DNA from: Candidatus Hodarchaeaceae archaeon
GTDB lineage: Archaea; Hadarchaeota; Hadarchaeia; Hadarchaeales; Hadarchaeaceae
Assembly: GCA_030018135.1 (NCBI GenBank)
Contig: JASEGJ010000007.1
Coordinates: 1-49,409, forward strand
Length of the DNA: 49,409 nucleotides
Direction of reading: 5' to 3'
This document shows positions 91-47,405 of the stretch, one piece after another. Position 1 is the first letter of the stretch; every line of letters starts with the position of its first letter. The position numbers and the translations under genes were made by a program. The notes under the pieces were generated by a model. That model saw nothing but the letters and a program-made list of their open reading frames with translations. It ran no database searches and was not told the origin of the DNA.

Positions 91-1434
91 TTGGTCGATC
101 TCGTGATAAAAAACGGTTTGATTGTCACGATGGACAAGGAACATCGAATCATCGCCAATGGTTCCGTGGGTGTTGAAGACGGTCGCATTGTATCGATCGG
201 TCGCAGGATTAAGGTCGAAGGCAAGCCAGAAGAAACGATCGACGCAAAGGGCAAGATCGTCATGCCCGGCTTGATTTGCTCGCACACCCACCTCTACCGT
301 GGGTTCCTCCGGGGTGCTCCCCTAAAGATCGAGCCGCCCACGGACTTCTCTCAGATCCTTCAGCGCACATGGTGGCCGATGGACGAAGCGATGACGCGGG
401 AAGATGCATACGCAAGCGCGCTCATTTCATGCCTTGGGTTTGTCAAAACTGGCACGACCTTGTTCGCCGACACCTTCTCCGGCCCAAACGCGATAACGGG
501 TGTGCTTGACCGCATCGCCGCAGCGGTCGAACAGTCGGGCATTCGCGGGATAATTGCCTTCGAGGCCACGGAACGGCGGACACACGCGGAGGGTGCCAAA
601 GGCACCCGTGAGAACGAGCGCTACATCCGCAAGATCAAGAAGGAGCGCACAAGCCGCGTGCGGGGGATGTTCGGCATTCATGCCTCTTTTACCGTTTCCG
701 AGGAACTCCTTCGTTATGTCCGTGAACTTGCAAGCCGCTATAAGGTGCCCATCACCATCCACACATCCGAGGGGCTTGTGGATTTATATCACAACTATGA
801 GCGATTTGGAAGGCGCACCGTCGAACGCCTTTGCGATGCCGGCCTGCTTGGGGCGGACGTTGTATTGGCCCATTGCGTGCAAGTTAACGACGATGAGCTG
901 GACATAATCAAGCGCACTAACACCAAAGTGGCACACAATCCCATGAGCGATATGTTGAACGCGGTAGGCATAGCACCCATCGCCAAGATGCTCTCGATGG
1001 GCATTTCCGTCGGTTTGGGTAATGACGGCTACATCTTCGATGGTTTTGAAAACATTCGGGCGGCCTTTCTATTGCATAAGATTGCGCTTCGAGATCCCCG
1101 TGCGATCTCGCCGATGGAAGCATTGGAAATGGCGACCATCAGGGGCGCGGAGCTTTACGGGCTGGAGAACGAGTTGGGCTCGCTCGAGGCCGGCAAACTC
1201 GCGGATATCATCATCATAGACCCCGCCACCGCACCCACGCCAATAAGACCGGAAAGTGTTGTCGGACACTTGGTAAACACCATCACCGGCAACGATGTCG
1301 AAACCGTAATCGTCGGGGGCACCGCAGTGATGCGCGAGCGCAAGTTATTGACGCTTGATGAGCAAGAAACCGTCAAGGTCGCGCGAAAGGCGGCTGAAAA
1401 ACTCTGGCAAAAACTTGGGGCGATAAGGAGATGA
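91..1434 (+). CDS. Metal-dependent amidohydrolase, MTA/SAH-deaminase/SsnA-like
   Basis: PGLICSHTH (HxH), GIHASFT, IHTSEG, LAHCV, AHNPMSD and GLGNDG motifs. Start placed at TTG 91 after GGAGG; the ORF is open from 52. Confidence 0.85.
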   Translation: MVDLVIKNGLIVTMDKEHRIIANGSVGVEDGRIVSIGRRIKVEGKPEETIDAKGKIVMPGLICSHTHLYRGFLRGAPLKIEPPTDFSQILQRTWWPMDEAMTREDAYASALISCLGFVKTGTTLFADTFSGPNAITGVLDRIAAAVEQSGIRGIIAFEATERRTHAEGAKGTRENERYIRKIKKERTSRVRGMFGIHASFTVSEELLRYVRELASRYKVPITIHTSEGLVDLYHNYERFGRRTVERLCDAGLLGADVVLAHCVQVNDDELDIIKRTNTKVAHNPMSDMLNAVGIAPIAKMLSMGISVGLGNDGYIFDGFENIRAAFLLHKIALRDPRAISPMEALEMATIRGAELYGLENELGSLEAGKLADIIIIDPATAPTPIRPESVVGHLVNTITGNDVETVIVGGTAVMRERKLLTLDEQETVKVARKAAEKLWQKLGAIRR

Positions 1435-1438
1435 TGGC

Positions 1439-2524
1439 TTGGTGAACTTAGCCGTCGAGATTTGTGGGCTTAAGCTTCGAAATCCGGTCATACCTGCCGC
1501 TGGCCCGATGGTGCGAAATGGCGACGCTTTAGCCGTTGCCGCTAAGGAGGGCGCAGGCGCCCTAGTGACGAAGACCATTAGTGTCACCCAGGCCGTGGTG
1601 CCTCGCCCGTGCATCGCCAAGGTCAAGGAGGGCCTTCTAAACGCGGAGTATGGGTCGGACCTAGCGCCTGAGAAATGGCTGAACGTGGAGCTTGTAAAAG
1701 CGAAAAGGACGGGGTTGCCCCTGATAGCTAGCGTGGGTTACAAACCTGCTGAGATCTCCGAACTTGCCCCAAAGCTTGAGGCGGCTGGCGTGGATGCGCT
1801 CGAGCTCTCGACCCACTACCTCGCTGACACAAGTTCCTTGATCGAGGTCACGAAGACCGCGAAGGAAAAAGTCGATATCCCCGTTTTCGTCAAGCTCAGC
1901 CCAAATACACTCGATATAATCGGGTCCGCCCGCGCCGCTGAGGGAGCTGGAGCTGACGGACTAGTGGCCATCAACACGCTTGGCCCATGCATGGCCATCG
2001 ACATCGAGACCGCTCGCCCAATTTTAGGTAGCTCCGGCGGTTATGGTTGGTTGTCCGGCCCCGCGATCAAGCCGCTTGCGTTGCGCTGTGTCGCGGATAT
2101 CTGCCGGGCGGTGCACATACCAGTGATAGGCGTTGGAGGCATATCCGACGGCAGGGATGCGGTCGAGTTCATCATGGCCGGCGCAACTGCCGTGCAGGTG
2201 TGCACGGCGGCGATCGTGCGTGGGCCCAAGATTTACGCACTAATAGCCGACGAGATCGCGCGATTCATGCGCGTGAAGGGTTACAATTCAATCGAGGATT
2301 TTAAGGGCATCGCGCTCAGGCACCTGCCCGAGCAGCCGCTGCGCACGAGGGCCAAGCCGCCGGAACTCATCCAGAGCAAGTGCACGAGCTGCGGGCTGTG
2401 CGAGAAGTACTGCATTTATGGTGCGATTAGAATAATAGGCAAAATCCCGAAAATTGATCCTGGCAGGTGTTATGGCTGCGGGCTATGTGCCACAGTATGC
2501 CCCACTCGAGCATTACTTTTTTAG
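1439..2524 (+). CDS. Dihydroorotate/dihydropyrimidine dehydrogenase-family FMN protein with C-terminal 2x[4Fe-4S] domain
   Basis: NPVIPAAGP, VTKT, VKLSPN, AINT, GWLSGPAIKP and GVGGI motifs; two CxxCxxCxxxC motifs at the C-terminus. Lacks the canonical NxSCP. Confidence 0.8.
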   Translation: MVNLAVEICGLKLRNPVIPAAGPMVRNGDALAVAAKEGAGALVTKTISVTQAVVPRPCIAKVKEGLLNAEYGSDLAPEKWLNVELVKAKRTGLPLIASVGYKPAEISELAPKLEAAGVDALELSTHYLADTSSLIEVTKTAKEKVDIPVFVKLSPNTLDIIGSARAAEGAGADGLVAINTLGPCMAIDIETARPILGSSGGYGWLSGPAIKPLALRCVADICRAVHIPVIGVGGISDGRDAVEFIMAGATAVQVCTAAIVRGPKIYALIADEIARFMRVKGYNSIEDFKGIALRHLPEQPLRTRAKPPELIQSKCTSCGLCEKYCIYGAIRIIGKIPKIDPGRCYGCGLCATVCPTRALLF

Positions 2525-3909: not shown

Positions 3910-5121
3910 TCATCCCTTCTCAACCCTTTTCCAAGTTATGCAATCCCAAACGGGGCAGACTGTAACGCAAAGCCCGCACCCCACACATTTCTCCTCGTCT
4001 ATCACCGGCAACCTTTCCTCATCGAGCTCAATCGCTTGATGCCCGCCGTCTCGGCAGGCGATATAACAAAGGTCGTCCTTGACGCAAGTTTTTCTGTTTA
4101 CCTGAGCAACGACCTTGTAGTCGCGTGGAAGTTCTGGGTGCATAACTATCTTGGGAAGCGCCAATCCAATCAACTTGGAAACGCTGCTCATTCCTTTGTC
4201 TTGGAGGTAATCGGTGATGCCGTCCTTCAGGTCGTCGATTATCCTATATCCATTGCGCATGACTGCAGTACAAAATTGTACGTTCCCAGCTCCAACCAGC
4301 ATGAACTCCACTGCGTCTTGCCAAGTCATTGCCCCTCCGGTTCCGGAGATTGGAATTCCGACGTGCTTTGCGAGCTCGGCGATGACGCGCAAGGTGATGG
4401 GCTTGATCGCCGCCCCGGAGTAACCGCTGTAAGTGGATTTTCCGTCGACGGAGGGATGAGGCTCAAATGAGTTTATGTCAATCCCCATTAGGGCGGGGAT
4501 CGTATTGCTGGCAGTGATGCCATCCGCACCGCTCTCCTTAACAGCCCGCCCAATCTCGACTATATCAGCCACCTGCGGGGTGATTTTGATAAATATGGGA
4601 ACTCTCTTTGCAGCGGCTTTCACCCAGCTTGCTACCTCTCTCGTCAATTTAGGATCCTGTGCGACCATAGCACCTGGCTTCTCCCCCATAGATCCCTGGG
4701 GGCACGAAAAACTGCACTCTATCAAATCTACTCCGGCTGCTTCTAAGCGCCGAACGAGAGTCTGCCAATCTTCCTTCCTGGCCCCCATGATGCTGGCGCC
4801 CACGACGTAGTCTGGGAACTCACTCTTTAGCTCTGCCACCCTTCCCTCGACCTCGTCGATGTGGTGCTCGGAAATCAGATCGATGTTTCCGAGCCCAATC
4901 ACCTTTTTGTCCTCAAAATCCAACCCCGCAATCATGGGATAAACTAGTTCCACCACCTCGCTCTCAACGGAGGTCGTCTTGAGTATAGCCCCGGCCCAGC
5001 CAGCTTCAAATGCGCGCTTAACCATTTCCACGTCATCCGTGGGCGGCCCGGCGGATAGCACAAATGGGTTTGAAAATTTTACCCCACACAGCTCAACTGA
5101 GAGATCTATTTTACCTGTCAC
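3910..5121 (-). CDS. preA: NAD-dependent dihydropyrimidine dehydrogenase subunit PreA-like
   Basis: NPFVLSAGPPT, GWAGAILKT, GLGNIDLISE, FSCPQG, KITPQ, GYSGAAIKPI and a C-terminal ferredoxin domain. GTG start at 5121 follows GGAGGTG. Confidence 0.85.
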   Translation of the reverse strand: MTGKIDLSVELCGVKFSNPFVLSAGPPTDDVEMVKRAFEAGWAGAILKTTSVESEVVELVYPMIAGLDFEDKKVIGLGNIDLISEHHIDEVEGRVAELKSEFPDYVVGASIMGARKEDWQTLVRRLEAAGVDLIECSFSCPQGSMGEKPGAMVAQDPKLTREVASWVKAAAKRVPIFIKITPQVADIVEIGRAVKESGADGITASNTIPALMGIDINSFEPHPSVDGKSTYSGYSGAAIKPITLRVIAELAKHVGIPISGTGGAMTWQDAVEFMLVGAGNVQFCTAVMRNGYRIIDDLKDGITDYLQDKGMSSVSKLIGLALPKIVMHPELPRDYKVVAQVNRKTCVKDDLCYIACRDGGHQAIELDEERLPVIDEEKCVGCGLCVTVCPVWDCITWKRVEKG

Positions 5122-40494: not shown

Positions 40495-41538
40495 CTATAC
40501 CTCAGGCGTTTGGAGCAACGGGGCTTCGTCAGAAAACAAGCGAGGGGCCGCTACCTTTTTTGCTTCAACGAGCATTACTGCACCATACCATCGAACGCCA
40601 ATTGCTTTAAAATTATGTTTTTTCAGCATTTCTGCAACCTCGTCGCTGTTGAAGAACCGGACCCGGTGTCCCACCCTTTCGCTAACGTAGAAAAACGCCC
40701 TCATCAGGGGGTTTGGCCTCGGCGGATAGCAAACGATGCTCACCAATAGCTTGGAATCATCCTTTAAGACCCTCGACATCTCAGCCAACGCCTTTTCTGG
40801 TTGCGGAAACAAGTTGAGCGAAGCTTGGCAGGTCAAGCCGTCGAAAGTTTTGTCCTTGAATGGCAACCCCTCGGCATCGCCATTTAAGAAGGTGATGTTC
40901 TTCAAACCCCTTCGCTCGGCCTTCCTCTTCCCCAGCTTAAGCATTTCCAGGGCGATGTCGATCCCAAAAATTTGACCGCGTGGGCCGACCGTCCTGCTCA
41001 GCTCCCTCGCAACCAGCCCCGTCCCAGTGGCGACATCGAGAAATATCTCGCCCCCGCCGGAGCTGGCCATCTTGGCCGTGATCCTAGCGAGCCCTTGATA
41101 CGAAAAGCCGTAGACAATAGATGGGACGATCAACCTTCCCCACTCGTACATGAAGGCCGTCCGGGCGAAATCCTCCTCTATAAATTTTTTCGATATATAG
41201 CTCCTTTCTTCGGGGCTCAACTCCTCGTATTTCAATTCCTTGATGGCCCGGCCGCAGTTGGGGCACAGCACGATTTCGCCCCTGAGGCCGACGAAGGATG
41301 ACCAGGGCTCCCGAACGGCCTCAACCTGCCTCTTGCACCCATCGCAAAATTGGATATTTTTAGGGGGTTTTTCCTCCAGCGTGGGGATCCCGTCTTCGAT
41401 GATGTAATCGTTCCCGCAGCGCTTACATGCGATTTCTCCGCGCAATATCTCCTGCCCCTCTCGCTCGCGAATGCTCAAGCTAAAATCCGAGCTTTTGCAT
41501 GTTGGGCAAAGCAGGTACCGAACGATCTCTCTTTTCAT
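40495..41538 (-). CDS. Class I SAM methyltransferase (UbiE/MenG-like) with N-terminal Trm112-like and zinc-ribbon domains
   Basis: LLCPTCK..IACKRCG..YIIEDGIP, CDGC..CPNC, LDVATGTG, GDAEGLPF..FD and EMSRVLK. Confidence 0.82.
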   Translation of the reverse strand: MKREIVRYLLCPTCKSSDFSLSIREREGQEILRGEIACKRCGNDYIIEDGIPTLEEKPPKNIQFCDGCKRQVEAVREPWSSFVGLRGEIVLCPNCGRAIKELKYEELSPEERSYISKKFIEEDFARTAFMYEWGRLIVPSIVYGFSYQGLARITAKMASSGGGEIFLDVATGTGLVARELSRTVGPRGQIFGIDIALEMLKLGKRKAERRGLKNITFLNGDAEGLPFKDKTFDGLTCQASLNLFPQPEKALAEMSRVLKDDSKLLVSIVCYPPRPNPLMRAFFYVSERVGHRVRFFNSDEVAEMLKKHNFKAIGVRWYGAVMLVEAKKVAAPRLFSDEAPLLQTPEV

Positions 41539-41819
41539 CCTTTCCCACTTCAAAAAGGTCGCCCCACGGATATATTTGATGATGGTTTGTGGCAAAATCG
41601 AGTTCGCTCAAAGGAGCAGGCATAGAACGCCATGCCATCAAAAGCCCTATTGGCATCCTCAGGGCAACTTTCATGTGCAGGTTAAATACCTGTTGATCGC
41701 CAACGAACGCTACTTGACATCTTTCTCCTGTTTTTCTGTGTCGACAAAAATGGTGCCCCACCGATAAATCCGGCGGAAACTACTTATGGGCTCTTGGAGA
41801 GGCTAGAGAGGGTAATTCA

Positions 41820-42812
41820 ATGGCTGATGAGTACGAGAGGGCGGCGGACGAGGTGAGGAAGCTGTTTCAAGAGAGGGGCGGTAAAATTTTGGAGGATTTG
41901 ACGGCTAGCATCTTGGGGGAAAAAATCGAATGCGACGAAACCAAGGAGGCGTTATCCCACTTCGCGTCCTACTGGCGCGATCTCGTCAGGCCCTCGCTGG
42001 TCTCGCTAGCTTGCGAGGCGGTGGGCGGGGATCCCTCGGTCGTCGCCCCGATAGGAAAGTCCCTGAGCCTCCTCAGCGGAGCCACGGACGTACACGACGA
42101 CATAATAGACAGGACGATGACGAAGGAGAAGAGAAACACCGTCCTCGGAGGGTTCGGGGGCGATATTGCCCTGCTGGCCGGGGATGCCCTGATCTTCAAG
42201 GGATTTGCGGAGTTCTTCGAGGGCCTCATGAAATTGGAGATCCCGCCCGAGAAAAAGTCTGCCGTAGTTCGCGCGGTCAAGGAGCTATATTTCGAGATGT
42301 GCGATGGCGAAGCCCTGGAGCTGAGGTTCAGGGCTCGGACCGACGTTGAGCCGGAAGAATACCTTCGAGTGGTGAGGAAGAAAGCCGCAGATATCGAAGC
42401 CTTGACGCGCGTTGGGGCGATGCTGGGCGGGGGGAGTGAGGAACAAACAAAGACTCTTGGGGAGTACGGTAGGCTTTTGGGCATGATTGTACTCTTGAGA
42501 AACGACCTCGAGGACTTACTGAATTTCGACGCCGTGGACTCGAGGATAACAAACGAGAGCCTTCCGCTACCCATACTTTATGCTCTGAAAAACGATGAAA
42601 AAAAGGCAGGTATCCTTGCCATTTTGAAAAATGGGGAAGTAAAAGGGGCGGAAGCTGAAAGACTATTAAAATTAGTTTCGGAAGCCGGAGGACTGGACAA
42701 GCTTTGGGAAATGTTTAGGGGGCTCAAGGCTCAAGCTAACAAAAAGGTTGGAAATAAAAAAATATTTAAAACTATTCTAGAAGCAACCGTTCCCGAGAGC
42801 CCTGAGATCTAG
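41820..42812 (+). CDS. Polyprenyl-synthetase-family protein with ComQ-like degenerate motifs
   Basis: FARM HDDIID (42093-42110), ALLAGDAL, and second motif NDLED (42501-42515). Canonical GGKRxR and RRG are absent. Confidence 0.8.
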   Translation: MADEYERAADEVRKLFQERGGKILEDLTASILGEKIECDETKEALSHFASYWRDLVRPSLVSLACEAVGGDPSVVAPIGKSLSLLSGATDVHDDIIDRTMTKEKRNTVLGGFGGDIALLAGDALIFKGFAEFFEGLMKLEIPPEKKSAVVRAVKELYFEMCDGEALELRFRARTDVEPEEYLRVVRKKAADIEALTRVGAMLGGGSEEQTKTLGEYGRLLGMIVLLRNDLEDLLNFDAVDSRITNESLPLPILYALKNDEKKAGILAILKNGEVKGAEAERLLKLVSEAGGLDKLWEMFRGLKAQANKKVGNKKIFKTILEATVPESPEI

Positions 42813-42830: not shown

Positions 42831-42875
42831 CTAGAGCCAAACTCGTACTGGTGAATACTTCAGCCTCATTCCCAT
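42831..42875 (-). CDS. Candidate peptide precursor (MG)MRLKYSPVRVWL
   Basis: AAAAGGAG RBS 8 nt before ATG 42869 (2 nt before ATG 42875); upstream GAAAGG-TTTATTTAT BRE/TATA-like element; Trp at the penultimate position. Confidence 0.55.
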   Translation of the reverse strand: MGMRLKYSPVRVWL

Positions 42876-42885
42876 TTCTCCTTTT

Positions 42886-42937
42886 GTATGTATGTTGCAC
42901 ACATATACATTAAAAAAAAACCATAAATAAACCTTTC
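42886..42937 (-). promoter_or_regulatory. Promoter of the peptide ORF with an imperfect inverted repeat
   Basis: Minus-strand TTTATTTAT at 42923-42931 preceded by GAAAGG; ATGTATGT-TGCAC-ACATATACAT imperfect palindrome near the predicted start site. Confidence 0.45.
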
Positions 42938-42978
42938 TATACTGGCTCAGGTGAAGAAAAAAGGGGTGGCATGAGAAA

Positions 42979-44184
42979 ATGGTGCTGTTTAAATGGCTCT
43001 TTGCCCATCGGAAGGGTTTCTTGCCAATGTTTTTTTTGATACTCAATTCGGTAACGTGGTTTTACCTAATGGTATTCATGATAGAGTTCATGATGCCGGA
43101 TGTGAATCCTTTTGCGTCCTCGCTTCGCTGGCTGTTCTATATGACCACGGCGGTATCCATGTTGATCGGGCCCGTCGTCGTCGGAAGGGTCAGTAAAGCA
43201 CGGTTCCTCTCCTTTTGGATCCTCTTAGGCGTTATTTTTTCGTTATTTCCTATGATTTTGCTTACATCTAGCGAATACGAAGTCGCGGCGCTGCTGATCC
43301 TCTGGGGTTTTGCATTCGGGATCGGCTTCCCCTCCTGCCTCGCCCTAATACCCACTCTCACGAGTGTTGAGGAAAGGGGGCGAGCGGGAGGTGCGGTATT
43401 TTTTGCAACTTATGCCATCTCACCATTATTGATAATTGCTATCAAGCAACTTGATGTTTTTTCAGGTTCTTTCGTGCTTGCAGCATGGAGAAGTCTCTGC
43501 ATTGGAGCGTTTTTGTTTAGTTTTAATGTGGATGTCGCATCACTTAGACCCGTTTCTTATTGTTCTATCCTCCGCCGTAGTATGTTCCTCCTTTATTTTC
43601 TCCCTTGGTTAGCTTTCTGTTTGATAAATTATTTTGAAAGACAGGTTTTGGAACAGTTTTTTGGTAAATCCATGATAGCTTTGATGGTTACCGTTGAGCT
43701 CGTAGTTGGGAGTCTTTTTTGTCTTATAGGCGGATGGCTTATGGATTTGAAAGGAAGAAAGTGGGTAATCATCATGGGACTTGTGGCATTGGGGTTAGGG
43801 TATGCCTTGCTCGGCCTTTTTCCGCTTATTTCTGCCGTCCAAGCATTCTATATGATTATGGATGGTATCGCTTTCGGCATCTTTACGGTGGCGTTTATAT
43901 TTGTCGTATGGGGAGACATTTCAAACGGTGAACGTGGAGAGAAATTTTACGGAATAGGAGGTCTCCCTGTTCTATTAGCTCCGACGTTGTCCCTGTTCGC
44001 CGCCGCTTGGCTTAGAACGCTAGACGCGAGCAACGCCTTCTCGCTCGCCAGCTTCTTCCTCTTCCTGGCGGTCATCCCGATCTTCTTCGCCCCCGAGCTG
44101 CTTCCGGAGTGCGTGCTAAAGGAGAGGGAGCTCAGGAGGTACGTCGAGGAGGTCAAGAAGGTCGCTGGTCGGGGCGGGGCTTGA
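42979..44184 (+). CDS. MFS-like polytopic membrane protein
   Basis: About 12 hydrophobic segments; GGWLMDLKGRK motif A-like, EERGRAGG and ERGEKFYG; charged C-terminal tail. Confidence 0.8.
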   Translation: MVLFKWLFAHRKGFLPMFFLILNSVTWFYLMVFMIEFMMPDVNPFASSLRWLFYMTTAVSMLIGPVVVGRVSKARFLSFWILLGVIFSLFPMILLTSSEYEVAALLILWGFAFGIGFPSCLALIPTLTSVEERGRAGGAVFFATYAISPLLIIAIKQLDVFSGSFVLAAWRSLCIGAFLFSFNVDVASLRPVSYCSILRRSMFLLYFLPWLAFCLINYFERQVLEQFFGKSMIALMVTVELVVGSLFCLIGGWLMDLKGRKWVIIMGLVALGLGYALLGLFPLISAVQAFYMIMDGIAFGIFTVAFIFVVWGDISNGERGEKFYGIGGLPVLLAPTLSLFAAAWLRTLDASNAFSLASFFLFLAVIPIFFAPELLPECVLKERELRRYVEEVKKVAGRGGA

Positions 44185-44971
44185 GCGCGTCCTTGGCCTT
44201 CTCCACTTGCTTGACGACCTCAACCAAGCTCTTCGAAAACGGGTGGTCCGGCTTCTCCAGCGCAATGATCGTCGACCTCTCCAGCCCGAGGACGTCGCAA
44301 TAGCAGGGCAGAAGGTCGATCACCGGCAGTTTGAAGGCCTTTTTGAATTGATTCGCCAGCTTCTTCCTCATCTCCTCGTTTATCGTCAACTGCGCGGGTA
44401 TCTTGTTCATCAAGACCATGGCCCGCTTCTCGAGCAGGCCGTAGAGCTCGCCCACCATGCCCTGGGCGCCCGCGACGTCGGACGAGTCCCAAGTCGAGAC
44501 CACCAGCACCACGTCCGCCGCGGCGATCGCGTTTATGCTCGCGTAGCTAAGGCCCGGGCCGGTGTCGAGGATCACGTAGTCCATTGCCAACTTCTTGAGC
44601 AGGATGTCCCTCAGCGAGAGCAGGCGGTGCAGCGCCCGCATCTCCCACTTGCCGTTCTTCGTCACGATCTCCCTTATCGCTTGCATCGACGGATTTGCCA
44701 GGGCCACGAGCAGCCTCCCCTCGGTGCCCTTTTCCTTCGAGAAATCCTTCAATATGTCGATCGGCTCGCACCTGCCCTCCAAAAAGTCGTTCATCCAGTA
44801 CTTTCCGTCCGCCGCGAAGGTGGCGTCGAGGCTGGGCGCGCGCAGGTCCAGATCTAGCAGGCAGACGTTCTTGCCTTGGCTCGCGAATATCGCCGCCAAG
44901 TTGGTGGAGATCAGGCTCTTTCCCGTACCTCCCTTGTAGCTGTGCACCGCTATGACCATGCCCGGGTTCAA
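44153..44971 (-). CDS. MinD/ParA-family ATPase
   Basis: Deviant Walker A KGGTGKS, DLDLRAPSL, LDTGPG and MNK. Confidence 0.9.
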   Translation of the reverse strand: MNPGMVIAVHSYKGGTGKSLISTNLAAIFASQGKNVCLLDLDLRAPSLDATFAADGKYWMNDFLEGRCEPIDILKDFSKEKGTEGRLLVALANPSMQAIREIVTKNGKWEMRALHRLLSLRDILLKKLAMDYVILDTGPGLSYASINAIAAADVVLVVSTWDSSDVAGAQGMVGELYGLLEKRAMVLMNKIPAQLTINEEMRKKLANQFKKAFKLPVIDLLPCYCDVLGLERSTIIALEKPDHPFSKSLVEVVKQVEKAKDALKPRPDQRPS

Positions 44972-45399
44972 GCTAATCCTCCCCCTTTGGGCTCTGGTCG
45001 TTGTTCGACCCCCATCGAGTCGCCCTCCGCCACGAAATACACCCGCTTGCCCTCTCTTTGTCTCTTCAGGTAACCCATCCTCGCCAGCTGGTTCAGGTAC
45101 GCGCTCTCGATCGCCCTGGCCCTGCCGGTCTCCTTCGCCACGTCGTCGGCCATCGCCTTCCCCAATTTCACTATCGCGATGGCGCTCTTCCTCAGGTGGT
45201 CCGGAAGGGAGAGGAGGGTCATGATGTCGAGGACCTCGCCCACCCTCGTCAGTTCCTCGGCCTTTTTGAGCAGGGGCCTTTTACCGACATCGCTGATCAA
45301 AACATCTATCTTCCTCTCTATTCGGCTCATCCACTCCCTGAGCTCATCCCGTTTGAACGGCTTTGCTTCCTCTGAACCGCGGATTTTCCGCATTTTCAT
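44968..45399 (-). CDS. Winged-helix transcriptional regulator with N-terminal coiled coil
   Basis: ADDVAKETGRARAIESAYLNQLARMGYL..REGKRVYF; overlaps the MinD/ParA gene. Confidence 0.8.
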   Translation of the reverse strand: MKMRKIRGSEEAKPFKRDELREWMSRIERKIDVLISDVGKRPLLKKAEELTRVGEVLDIMTLLSLPDHLRKSAIAIVKLGKAMADDVAKETGRARAIESAYLNQLARMGYLKRQREGKRVYFVAEGDSMGVEQRPEPKGGGLA

Positions 45400-45579: not shown

Positions 45580-46035
45580 TCAAATCTCGCCCCTTTCTTT
45601 CCCGCCCCGAGCTTGCCCCTTAAGGCCCCGAACCAAAAATTTCTTACAATCCGAGTGAACCTTTCTCGCAGAGCGCAGGGCCTCCGGGGCGTAGTCTTTG
45701 AAGTACTCGGCCGTGATGCCCTGCTCAAACCCGTAGCCAGCGAGCCCCCGTTGCTCCGCAAGCTTTGCCACGACATCCGAGATCTCGGGGATCTCCTTCC
45801 TGAACCACGGCGGGATACCCTCCCGATCGGCCAACTGCAGAAAAACATCACTCACATCGTGCTCCTTCGGGAAATCTATGCCGACGGAGAGCAGCACCGC
45901 CTTGGCCGATTGTTCGACCGCCATCTGGGCGCTATAGACCACATCGTCCCACCGCGCGTCCTCGAGCGCCCTCTCGGCACCCTGAAGCCACCTACCCGCC
46001 CGATCCAGTACCTGCCGCGCTATCGCCGAATTCAT
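45580..46035 (-). CDS. HEPN-domain protein
   Basis: VVYSAQMAVEQSAKAVL..FPKEHDV and RGLAGYG; ATG 46035 follows GGAGG and overlaps the MNT stop. Confidence 0.85.
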   Translation of the reverse strand: MNSAIARQVLDRAGRWLQGAERALEDARWDDVVYSAQMAVEQSAKAVLLSVGIDFPKEHDVSDVFLQLADREGIPPWFRKEIPEISDVVAKLAEQRGLAGYGFEQGITAEYFKDYAPEALRSARKVHSDCKKFLVRGLKGQARGGKERGEI

Positions 46036-46784
46036 TTGAGAACCTCCCCCGCAACGCTTGGGACCCGAACCCAATAAAACTCGCCGCTTGGGGTGGTCAC
46101 CCGCCTCGTCCCCTCCTCGATGAGCTTCTTCCTGACGCCTTCGAGAACTCCGGTGAGAAACCCATCCCTTTCAAAGAGGATTATCCCGTCCAGGCAGGCG
46201 TCCAAGTACATCCGATGGAAACGCAGGGCTTCGTCCTTGTCGAGGGGGTAATGCTGGATGATCGGCACGAAGCCCGCCCGCACCGCTCGTGAGAATTCCC
46301 CCGTATTCCGGAGTTCGTCCCTGAGCTTCAACAGCTCCTCGCTTCGCTCCCAAGTTGGTTTTTTCCACCCCTCCACCACGATGAGCAGGTCGATATCGCT
46401 GTCAGGGGTCCAATCTCCTCGAGCCACGGAACCGAAGACCAGGACGCCGAGGAGCCCATCCTTAAAGTGGCCCAACAAAATCTTACAATAACGCTCGAGG
46501 ACGTCCGCAAATGCGCGATGGGGGATGCGGTCGACGTTCGTGATCTCGGCCCCCGGCACCTCGATCAGCTCAAACCAGCTTTTGGCGAGTCCCGCGGCCC
46601 GCCTCCCCTTTTCGGAGAGGGAGTAGATCTTGTCCCTGGATTCCACCATGCCGAGCGAGCTGAGTTCCCTCAACTTCTTGCTCAGGGTGCGTGGGTTCTT
46701 GAGGGATTCCATGAGTTCGCCGAACCTGGCTGCCCCCTTGTGCTCGAGCTCGAGGAGGAGAACGCTAGCATACCTATCGATCAT
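46032..46784 (-). CDS. wHTH (HxlR-like) fused to a minimal nucleotidyltransferase
   Basis: RFGEL..PRTLSKKLRELSSLG..YSLSEKG, then VFGSVARGDWTPDSDIDLL. Confidence 0.85.
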   Translation of the reverse strand: MIDRYASVLLLELEHKGAARFGELMESLKNPRTLSKKLRELSSLGMVESRDKIYSLSEKGRRAAGLAKSWFELIEVPGAEITNVDRIPHRAFADVLERYCKILLGHFKDGLLGVLVFGSVARGDWTPDSDIDLLIVVEGWKKPTWERSEELLKLRDELRNTGEFSRAVRAGFVPIIQHYPLDKDEALRFHRMYLDACLDGIILFERDGFLTGVLEGVRKKLIEEGTRRVTTPSGEFYWVRVPSVAGEVLK

Positions 46785-46822: not shown

Positions 46823-46988
46823 AATATTTTTTTCAGGCCCGATCTCGCCCAACTACATAAGTGGGCGGAAGACCGACGAGGGGTACCTATCCTCCTTAAT
46901 TGAAACATGATCGGGCACGGGAAGTTGGTGAAATTCGACGGGCAACAGAAGATTAACAGCAAACGGTTTACATTTCATGTGGGCTACG

Positions 46989-47405
46989 ATGTCGCTGGAA
47001 GAAAAAATAAAGGAACTCCTCGGACGAGAGAGGCACATCGAACTAGCGTACCTTTTCGGCTCGGCGGCACGGGGGAAAATTAGCAAGCTGAGCGATGTCG
47101 ACGTAGCTGTTTACCTCGATGAGTCCCTCTCGAGCGATGAAAGGTTCAAACTGCAACTCAGACTGATGGGCGAGCTGGCCTCATTGCTCAGGACCGGTAA
47201 AATAGACCTCGTTGTGATGAACGATGCTCCTCCCGTCTTGAACTATGAGATAATCAGGTTCGAGCCCATCTACGTTAGGGATACATCAAAAAAGGTTAGG
47301 GTCGAACATAGCATAATGTCAAGGTACTTGGACAGGAGGTACTATGAGAAACGGATGCTCGAGACATTCTTAAGGAGGGTTTCCGAGAAGGGGTTGGATT
47401 GGTGA
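46989..47405 (+). CDS. MntA-type nucleotidyltransferase antitoxin
   Basis: AYLFGSAARG..LSDVDVAV and IDLVVMNDAPP. Confidence 0.9.
   Translation: MSLEEKIKELLGRERHIELAYLFGSAARGKISKLSDVDVAVYLDESLSSDERFKLQLRLMGELASLLRTGKIDLVVMNDAPPVLNYEIIRFEPIYVRDTSKKVRVEHSIMSRYLDRRYYEKRMLETFLRRVSEKGLDW

Follow-up and report, generated by a model that had tools for sequence, protein, structure and literature searches.

An antisense micro-gene conserved beside a divergent isoprenyl-synthase-fold enzyme in Hadarchaeia and Bathyarchaeia: a candidate precursor of an archaeal lipopeptide

The stretch from position 1 to 49,409 of contig JASEGJ010000007.1 of Candidatus Hodarchaeaceae archaeon (referred to here as the window) contains a 166-nt spacer between two plus-strand genes, one encoding a PF00348 protein with the fold of trans-isoprenyl diphosphate synthases (trans-IPPS) and the other a transporter of the major facilitator superfamily (MFS). 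A very short open reading frame (ORF) lies antisense within this spacer, and the locus therefore raises the question of whether such a micro-ORF is a gene and, if so, what its peptide does. A first-pass annotation of the DNA had proposed an unannotated gene of 12–14 amino acids (aa) with its own ribosome-binding site (RBS) and promoter, a proposal that is strongly supported by the comparisons described below: the frame, the Shine-Dalgarno (SD) sequence, the TATA element and an adjoining palindrome are all kept in orthologous loci. We consider it very probable that the micro-ORF is a real gene. Our favoured explanation of its function, which we hold tentatively, is that it encodes a nearly leaderless precursor peptide that would be prenylated by the IPPS-like enzyme, exported by the MFS transporter and expressed under operator control.

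The micro-ORF (MRLKYSPVRVWL, 12 codons plus TAG) was recognized at positions 42869–42831 of the minus strand by direct reading of the sequence and through orthologous micro-ORFs in relatives. The minus-strand sequence quoted in the first-pass annotation was found there exactly, ending in TAG. Two ATG codons are available, at 42875–42873 and 42869–42867, the first of which would add the residues MG and yield a 14-mer. The second is followed by AGG CTG AAG TAT TCA CCA GTA CGA GTT TGG CTC and by the stop codon at 42833–42831. An SD-like AAGGAGA sequence (42877..42883, minus strand) contains a GGAG tetramer (42881–42878) that is separated from the second ATG by 8 nt and from the first by only 2 nt; the earlier description of a well-spaced RBS is confirmed for the second start, and because of this difference in spacing the predicted 12-aa reading is better placed than the 14-aa reading and is favoured. 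Further upstream, an element resembling a B recognition element (BRE) and TATA box, AGAAAGG-TTTATTTA (42924..42938, minus strand), is predicted from its sequence to serve the micro-ORF and lies 49–55 nt before the ATG codons, in agreement with the distance of about 50 nt reported previously.

The 12-aa peptide starts with a basic portion, continues into an S-P-V-R core and closes with a tail of three residues in which Trp occupies the penultimate position, as had been pointed out (TGG at 42839–42837, one CTC codon before TAG). The micro-ORF is convergent with the synthase-like gene, the two stop codons being 18 nt apart, and divergent from the MFS gene. As the first-pass annotation had also observed, a mechanical ORF list includes it only as the end of a 71-aa frame with a TTG start (42831..43046). 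Neither this 71-aa frame nor the 20-aa family member from locus L057 gave any match in Pfam or NCBIfam at E values up to 10, and no Rfam family (at gathering thresholds) and no tRNA was detected across the whole window.

When the spacer DNA was searched against 40 relatives, a match was obtained only in the window's own genome (G000; 1.1 Mb in 45 contigs), and therefore protein-anchored synteny was used to locate corresponding loci, which are numbered L0xx or L1xx. Orthologues of the synthase-like gene were identified in five of the 40 relatives, with 62–74% identity, and the downstream spacer was included in three of these loci. All three retain the order synthase-then-MFS and carry an antisense micro-ORF with the sequence S-P-V-R-I-W, followed by one further residue and the stop codon (six residues in one locus). 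The micro-ORFs of these close loci differ from one another by synonymous codons. Over the orthologous loci in relatives, S-P-V-R-[IV]-W was present in the antisense micro-ORF of 4 of 4.

The same arrangement was found over a much larger evolutionary distance. The genome set, which contained one genome per species, provided 40 loci (3 Hadarchaeia-like and about 36 from Bathyarchaeia), with enzyme identities of 32–40% for the scanned loci and of 30–40% between the two archaeal lineages. Nearly all have, immediately past the synthase stop and on the other strand, a micro-ORF made up of Met, a K/R-rich stretch, P-[VIM]-R, 3–9 residues and a stop codon. For counting, a micro-ORF was scored when a frame comprised a polybasic start, a P-[VI]-R core, a tail of 3–9 residues and a stop codon. 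This rule was satisfied on the antisense strand in 38 of the 40 genome loci and on the sense strand in none of the 40, and mononucleotide-shuffled spacers satisfied it in a mean of 0.96 of 40. The two antisense misses were L064, where the core is an M-V-R variant, and L069, where no such ORF is present. Since the rule had been derived from the genome loci, it was frozen and then applied to a held-out set of 80 metagenome loci, 7 of which were skipped because the motif was lacking or fewer than 200 nt were available downstream. In the remaining 73 loci it was satisfied 58 times in antisense and never in sense (0/73), figures that are to be read with the reservation, unfavourable to our interpretation, that the test is not fully independent, as the rule was built on the first set and some metagenome peptides repeat those of the first set. 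On inspection, 11 of the 15 metagenome misses were near-variants (for example P-V-V-N-W-W, S-P-I-A-F-W-Y, S-P-V-V-F-W-Y and L-V-R-F-W-F), and in two others the synthase stop had been misplaced in scoring. The equivalent small ORF beside homologous prenyltransferases that the first-pass annotation had looked to as a check is thus present in most of the loci of both sets.

The codons used at the core indicate what is being preserved. All four Pro codons (CCA, CCC, CCT and CCG) and six Arg codons (CGA 13, AGA 15, AGG 4, CGG 1, CGC 2 and CGT 1) are represented, and because Pro is written with four codons and Arg with six, selection is judged to act on the peptide sequence. Furthermore, ATG is the start codon in 34 of 37 distinct ORFs, 31 of 37 distinct orthologous loci have an SD-like tetramer ahead of the start codon, and the distance between the stop codons of the micro-ORF and the synthase-like gene ranges from −9 to +58 nt in most loci.

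L088 and L126, the remaining two metagenome misses, contain a different conserved micro-ORF at the same antisense site, with an S-P-L-H-R core and a Cys/Thr-rich tail in place of the basic P-V-R type. In L068 (about 3966–4399) and L108 the micro-ORF is duplicated in tandem and the two peptides are identical; tandem duplication is common among precursor genes of peptides that are made on ribosomes and modified after translation (RiPPs). Another locus, L063, belongs to a record titled Candidatus Acidoferrum sp., a bacterial label, and contains a full archaeal-type module with synthase-like gene, micro-ORF, MFS gene and radical SAM gene, which suggests mis-binning or gene transfer.

Pooling of both locus sets gave a family of 83 distinct peptides of 12–20 aa, the invariant portion of which consists of the basic stretch and P-[VI]-R. 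The leaders contain 28% Lys and 19% Arg, and the tails, in which P-x-R is separated from the stop by 3 to 9 codons, are enriched in Trp (21%) and Gly (12%). Trp is present in 58 of the 83 tails and in 9 of the 9 Hadarchaeia-type peptides seen. The G-W pair is common, many Bathyarchaeia tails ending in G-W-x or GGW, and Trp-rich ends such as RFWWW, RWWWN and RGVWW occur among the members. In one subclade, a near-constant leader, AKKAKKKDVPVR, is followed by a 3-residue tail that reads VWG, VML, WTP, ILA, ALP or AGP. A constant leader joined to a variable core is, at the level of sequence, the pattern typical of RiPPs, and one that does not by itself settle which residue would be the acceptor.

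The region upstream of the micro-ORF is conserved as well. A TATA consensus, AAAnCTTTTAAGT, stands at the same place in the 35 aligned loci and in the 8 closest loci. Because purine-rich tracts flank the TATA element on both strands (window 42911–42923), it may also drive the divergent MFS gene, which would make the promoter bidirectional and common to both genes; an SD sequence of the MFS gene itself, GGGGTGG, stands 9 nt before its ATG at 42979. Between the TATA element and the micro-ORF lies an imperfect palindrome of 25 nt, TGTATATGTGTGCAACATACATACA (42885..42909, either strand), with invariant half-sites GTA..TGT...ACA..TAC. Alignment of the same two groups of loci (35, and the 8 closest) revealed a conserved palindrome core, TGTTcAACA, and the motif ATACAG, both on the micro-ORF strand, and in L040 the palindrome is perfect (10+10). 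A model of the whole Hadarchaeia-type synthase–MFS locus, trained on the 4 genomes that contain it and searched against 41 genomes, matched both strands at the palindrome; its strong matches were confined to the 4 training genomes, with none in the other 37. An RNA hairpin was considered for this palindrome and rejected: the paired columns are invariant, with essentially no covariation (only one pair changed on both sides), and the fold energy does not surpass that of shuffled sequences (z 0.10). The palindrome is therefore read as a probable DNA operator for a repressor, at or near the transcription start. In Bathyarchaeia it is located between the TATA element and the site where transcription is expected to begin. 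The Hadarchaeia-type loci have it about 16 nt farther from the TATA element, and because of this greater distance the transcript may begin within it.

On the other side of the micro-ORF, a run of seven T residues (42756..42762, minus strand) constitutes a candidate archaeal terminator of a short transcript, 68 nt past the stop codon and inside the 3' end of the synthase-like gene. Of 37 loci, 26 have a run of at least five T residues no more than 140 nt past the stop, and in 8 such a run comes within the first 30 nt. The locus model also gave two weak matches, one in G036 and one (E 1e-3) in G012; the latter was rejected as an additional micro-ORF locus, the site being an ordinary promoter with no micro-ORF. 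At that site (L159, 1500–1545; G012:C45), a TATA box and an element, TGTATTTATGTTACACA, that resembles half of the palindrome precede a gene of 437 aa.

The enzyme encoded by the convergent gene (330 aa; 41820..42812, plus strand; PF00348, E 5.5e-25) is a divergent member of its fold. Its structural model (predicted local distance difference test, pLDDT, 95.7) is that of a trans-IPPS, and the first aspartate-rich motif (FARM), DVHDDIID, is invariant, with D93, D94 and D97 present in 34 of 34 aligned sequences. The second aspartate-rich motif (SARM) follows the pattern R-[NDE]-[DE]-x-x-D across the family and reads R-N-D-L-E-D in the window enzyme. Three further features distinguish the family: GGKRxR has become W-x-D-x-x-x-P, the FQ before the second motif is lost, and the loop GKPxGxD..GKxT is deleted. 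Immediately before the second motif the family has L-L-R or T-I-R, with R227 at least 90% conserved, in place of the F-Q-I-Q of canonical paralogues. GGKRxR, FQ and GKPxGxD..GKxT are all kept in the canonical paralogues of the window genome (C11 and C1) and in PDB entry 1wy0; canonical archaeal geranylgeranyl diphosphate (GGPP) synthases such as 1wy0 and the C11 paralogue have the same type of FARM. In elongating trans-IPPS enzymes these elements bind isopentenyl diphosphate (IPP) and diphosphate. Because the lost motifs form the IPP/diphosphate site, chain elongation by this enzyme appears unlikely from its sequence, and it may instead be a prenyltransferase acting on another acceptor, or a terpene synthase. 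The enzyme also fails to reach any NCBIfam cut-off: its best score is 126, where the equivalog cut-off is 468.

A complex of the enzyme, supplied as the 34-row alignment, with the 14-mer was predicted alongside three controls. The median score was 0.47 compared with 0.18 for the best control, a verdict of weak support for the pairing, with contact agreement of at least 85% between runs and a partner pLDDT of at least 55. In calibration, 58 of 80 solved complexes and 2 of 110 mismatched pairs attained the mark applied to this score, with no calibration chain shorter than 30 residues, and scores of 0.60 or less included only 7 of the 80 solved complexes together with both of the passing mismatches.

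The third constant component of the module is the MFS transporter (401 aa; 42979..44184, plus strand; PF07690), a candidate exporter. An MFS gene follows the synthase-like gene in all loci scanned with Pfam, so that the synthase/micro-ORF/MFS module is constant, and the nearest Atlas clusters of the window protein are Bathyarchaeota MFS families. Downstream of the MFS gene two variants exist. In the first, seen in about half of the 40 loci, the next ORF has 373–381 aa; it was identified as a radical SAM protein in 6 of 6 loci scanned with Pfam. NCBIfam scans of two loci assigned both proteins to TIGR04084, a SPASM family (307 and 312 bits; cut-off 225), and the next-best families were peptide maturases. 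No TIGR04084 match above the cut-off was found in the window genome, and the SPASM protein is for this reason not counted in the core module.

In the second variant, which includes the window, a convergent pair of genes takes this place: a ParA/MinD-like ATPase (44153–44971, minus strand) and a small TrmB-like winged-helix protein (44968–45399, minus strand; TrmB 25.4 bits, just below the 25.6 cut-off, with 26.0 bits for its L039 counterpart). The pair is conserved beside the module in Hadarchaeia-type and some Bathyarchaeia loci (G000, L032, L033, L039, L044, L067 and L068), and the TrmB-like protein is a candidate regulator acting through the palindrome, a link to the operator that we infer. 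Pfam scans of the neighbours in the window genome yielded methyltransferase, Lrp/AsnC, MFS, ParA-like and TrmB-like proteins and no kinase. In the Hadarchaeia-type relative L032, a 425-aa protein with multiple PAS domains (632–1909, plus strand) is encoded directly upstream of the synthase-like gene and could be a sensor; a kinase domain was not detected in it.

Other genes of the window are mentioned for completeness. Just upstream of the synthase-like gene, at 40495–41595 (minus strand), lies the gene of a UbiE/COQ5-type methyltransferase that carries a Trm112-like zinc ribbon fused to its N-terminus; it scored 52 bits with NF038101, below the cut-off of 77, and was not seen beside the module in other loci. 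Farther downstream, a gene for a HEPN-domain protein (45580–46074, minus strand) overlaps that of a nucleotidyltransferase with an HxlR-like helix-turn-helix (46032–46784, minus strand), and a second minimal nucleotidyltransferase (MNT; 46977–47405, plus strand) is encoded near this pair; these genes have the look of HEPN/MNT toxin–antitoxin-type modules.

As judged from sequence, the module resembles in outline the ComQ/ComX or PalQ/PalX pair, and it departs from both in several of the features by which a member would be recognized. ComQ/ComX of Bacillus and StheQ/StheX of Sphaerobacter share with it the IPPS fold, a DDxxD-type FARM and an altered second motif. According to the StheQ preprint, ComQ-family enzymes combine the FARM with a pseudo-SARM, N-D-x-x-x, that replaces DDxxD, and the StheQ residues N215, D216 and D219 are matched by the N-D-x-x-D of the window enzyme. 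As in the present module, ComX and StheX are products of small adjoining genes, carry Trp 1–3 residues from the C-terminus and vary in their C-terminal part, whereas their precursors are of 53–69 aa compared with 12–20 aa here. In contrast to ComQ/ComX, the partner genes here are those of the MFS transporter and often of a SPASM radical SAM protein, the hosts are archaeal and Trp is not universal. The prenyltransferase PalQ of Paenibacillus alvei is described as related to isoprene synthases and as accepting short cores without a leader. The PalX core, DNVRRFFW, is basic and aromatic with Trp at its end, like some of the tails described above. The preference of PalQ for Gly before Trp likewise has a parallel in the frequent G-W tails. 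PalX, however, is made with an NHLP leader, and the PalQ cluster contains a histidine kinase where the present module has an MFS transporter.

Very short precursors have a precedent of another kind. Minimal RiPP clusters of the biarylitide type reportedly consist of a 5-aa precursor gene and a single tailoring enzyme, a P450 that forms a biaryl cross-link, in Actinomycetota. They exemplify leaderless precursor genes that are too short for gene callers and are found through the neighbouring enzyme, and they differ from the module described here in enzyme class, chemistry, peptide motif and taxa. No description of the archaeal module was found in the open-access literature that was searched, and the main text of a survey of archaeal RiPPs does not mention prenylation, tryptophan or Bathyarchaeia. 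A 2026 review names only bacterial IPPS-fold peptide prenyltransferases as characterized.

The favoured explanation builds on conservation at the amino-acid level, on the presence of a promoter and SD sequence, on strict linkage to the enzyme and the MFS gene and on an enzyme that is not a canonical elongator. According to it, the micro-ORF would be separately transcribed and translated into a 12-aa peptide, which would be dedicated to the convergent trans-IPPS-fold enzyme as its partner and, most likely, as its acceptor substrate. This enzyme, which retains the donor-binding first Asp-rich motif and lacks the IPP acceptor site, would move a prenyl chain onto the tail of the peptide, onto the Trp indole where Trp is present. 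The product would be a very small cationic lipopeptide, presumably exported by the divergent MFS transporter; in many Bathyarchaeia a SPASM radical-SAM maturase would be added to the pathway, and expression would be controlled by the palindromic operator beside the TATA box. Translation in vivo, prenylation and its site, export and the role of the product, be it signal or antimicrobial, are all inferred in this scheme. The nearly leaderless, ComX-like peptide proposed in the first-pass annotation is plausible insofar as its neighbour has the IPPS fold and lacks the IPP-site motifs, but the antisense orientation of the gene, the absence of an adjacent sensor and the missing Gln set it apart from ComX.

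Several observations weigh against the favoured explanation, or at least against a strict analogy with known Trp prenyltransferases. Trp is absent from the tails of 25 of the 83 family members. An aromatic residue is present in 76 of the 83 tails and there is none in the other 7 (ALP, AGP, VML, LMP, VIA and ILA). According to the 2026 review, all characterized trans-isoprenyl diphosphate synthase (trans-IDS)-like peptide prenyltransferases target Trp and have in common a Gln, directly ahead of the second motif, that is key for Trp recognition, whereas Arg or Leu is found at this position here. The same source states that PalQ strictly needs a terminal Trp, preferably within G-W, and that a C-terminal extension abolishes its activity, while here one residue usually follows the Trp. 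The pseudo-SARM Asn is present in just four aligned family members (R-N-D-x-x-D in G000, L032, L033 and L038), the others having Asp or Glu at this position. The closest matches of the enzyme, both by sequence and by fold, are archaeal GGPP synthases (1wy0, E 1.9e-29, TM 0.84) and not Ord1, which ranks 36th or lower in PDB searches; these searches do not separate the enzyme from ordinary GGPP synthases, and Atlas places it in generic Bathyarchaeota 'polyprenyl synthetase' clusters. Finally, comQ and comX are co-directional whereas the precursor gene here is antisense and convergent, and ComQXPA includes a sensor kinase and a response regulator, neither of which was found adjacent to the module by Pfam scans of the neighbours in the window genome.

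Much of this evidence could also be accommodated if the peptide were an unmodified polybasic micro-subunit that binds or regulates the enzyme or the transporter, or that anchors to the membrane through its hydrophobic tail. The same conservation and linkage data fit such a subunit, its invariant part (the basic stretch and P-[VI]-R) offers no nucleophilic acceptor, and the weak support from the complex prediction is as compatible with a subunit as with a substrate. Nevertheless, we regard this possibility as unlikely: the tails vary strongly in sequence and in length (3–9 aa) even between close relatives, which would be unusual for a fixed interface, the loss of the IPP site in the enzyme calls for a new acceptor, and a SPASM maturase is encoded in many of the clusters.

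The position of the micro-ORF stop, at −9 to +58 nt from that of the convergent synthase-like gene, would suit a cis-regulatory ORF in which a stalling polybasic P-V-R nascent chain controls a short antisense transcript; this transcript, by overlapping the synthase mRNA at its 3' end, would adjust how much synthase is made. Such an ORF could be as short as the one observed, its conserved part would sit in the ribosome exit tunnel, and Trp would be dispensable. In the window genome the first T-run lies inside the synthase-like gene, and in 11 of 37 loci a T5 run is lacking from the first 140 nt. A stalling function is difficult to reconcile, however, with a distance from P-x-R to stop that ranges over 3–9 codons, and in the 8 of 37 loci with a T-run at most 30 nt past the stop there would be hardly any antisense overlap. 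Moreover, known leader and arrest peptides are encoded upstream of the gene that they regulate, share its transcript and read in its direction, whereas what lies downstream of the micro-ORF is the antisense strand of the synthase-like gene, and the MFS gene is divergent. Conserved RNA structure was not found by Rfam, covariation or fold energy, and on balance this explanation seems improbable.

There is also little likelihood that the MFS transporter exports the product as a free peptide, cationic and rich in Trp, that acts on membranes in the manner of an antimicrobial peptide or archaeocin, with the enzyme making an unrelated isoprenoid. The family composition, with Lys- and Arg-rich leaders, Trp-rich tails and ends such as RFWWW, is one that we take to resemble Arg/Trp-rich antimicrobial peptides, and the promoter region is common to the divergent MFS gene. 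Yet an unrelated enzyme would not account for a convergent position that is tightly kept in two lineages whose enzymes are so dissimilar, and the peptide of the window type (12 aa, 3 basic residues and 1 Trp) is a poor antimicrobial candidate.

A chance ORF in the MFS promoter region, of which only the TATA element and the operator are functional and could serve the plus-strand MFS gene, is strongly disfavoured by the retention of amino acids through synonymous codon changes that include CGN/AGR switches, by conservation confined to one strand in both locus sets, by the conserved ATG and SD sequence and by the location of the micro-ORF on the far side of the TATA element from the MFS gene.

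Returning to the lipopeptide precursor, the product of the micro-ORF may be a lipid-tagged peptide for signalling or defence, which would make it the first of its kind known from archaea. To our knowledge, hardly any peptide signalling or ribosomal natural products have been described from archaea that are uncultured. The micro-ORF and its relatives constitute a conserved family of 12–20-codon genes that gene callers have missed and that can be found through their neighbours. Were the peptide not a substrate, one would still have to explain why a polybasic micro-protein is so strictly conserved and why it accompanies an isoprenoid enzyme and a transporter. Were it confirmed as a substrate, the acceptor scope of IPPS-fold prenyltransferases would be widened and short lipidation tags would become available. 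In a broader and more doubtful form of the proposal, Hadarchaeia and Bathyarchaeia would make ribosomal lipopeptides from essentially leaderless precursor genes of 12–20 codons, among the smallest known, the tail of the polybasic peptide being prenylated by a repurposed GGPP-synthase paralogue with an acceptor not restricted to Trp, modified further by a SPASM enzyme in many lineages and secreted by the MFS transporter as a signal or weapon. If true, the module would represent the first archaeal counterpart of the ComX-type prenylated pheromones and a new class of RiPPs.

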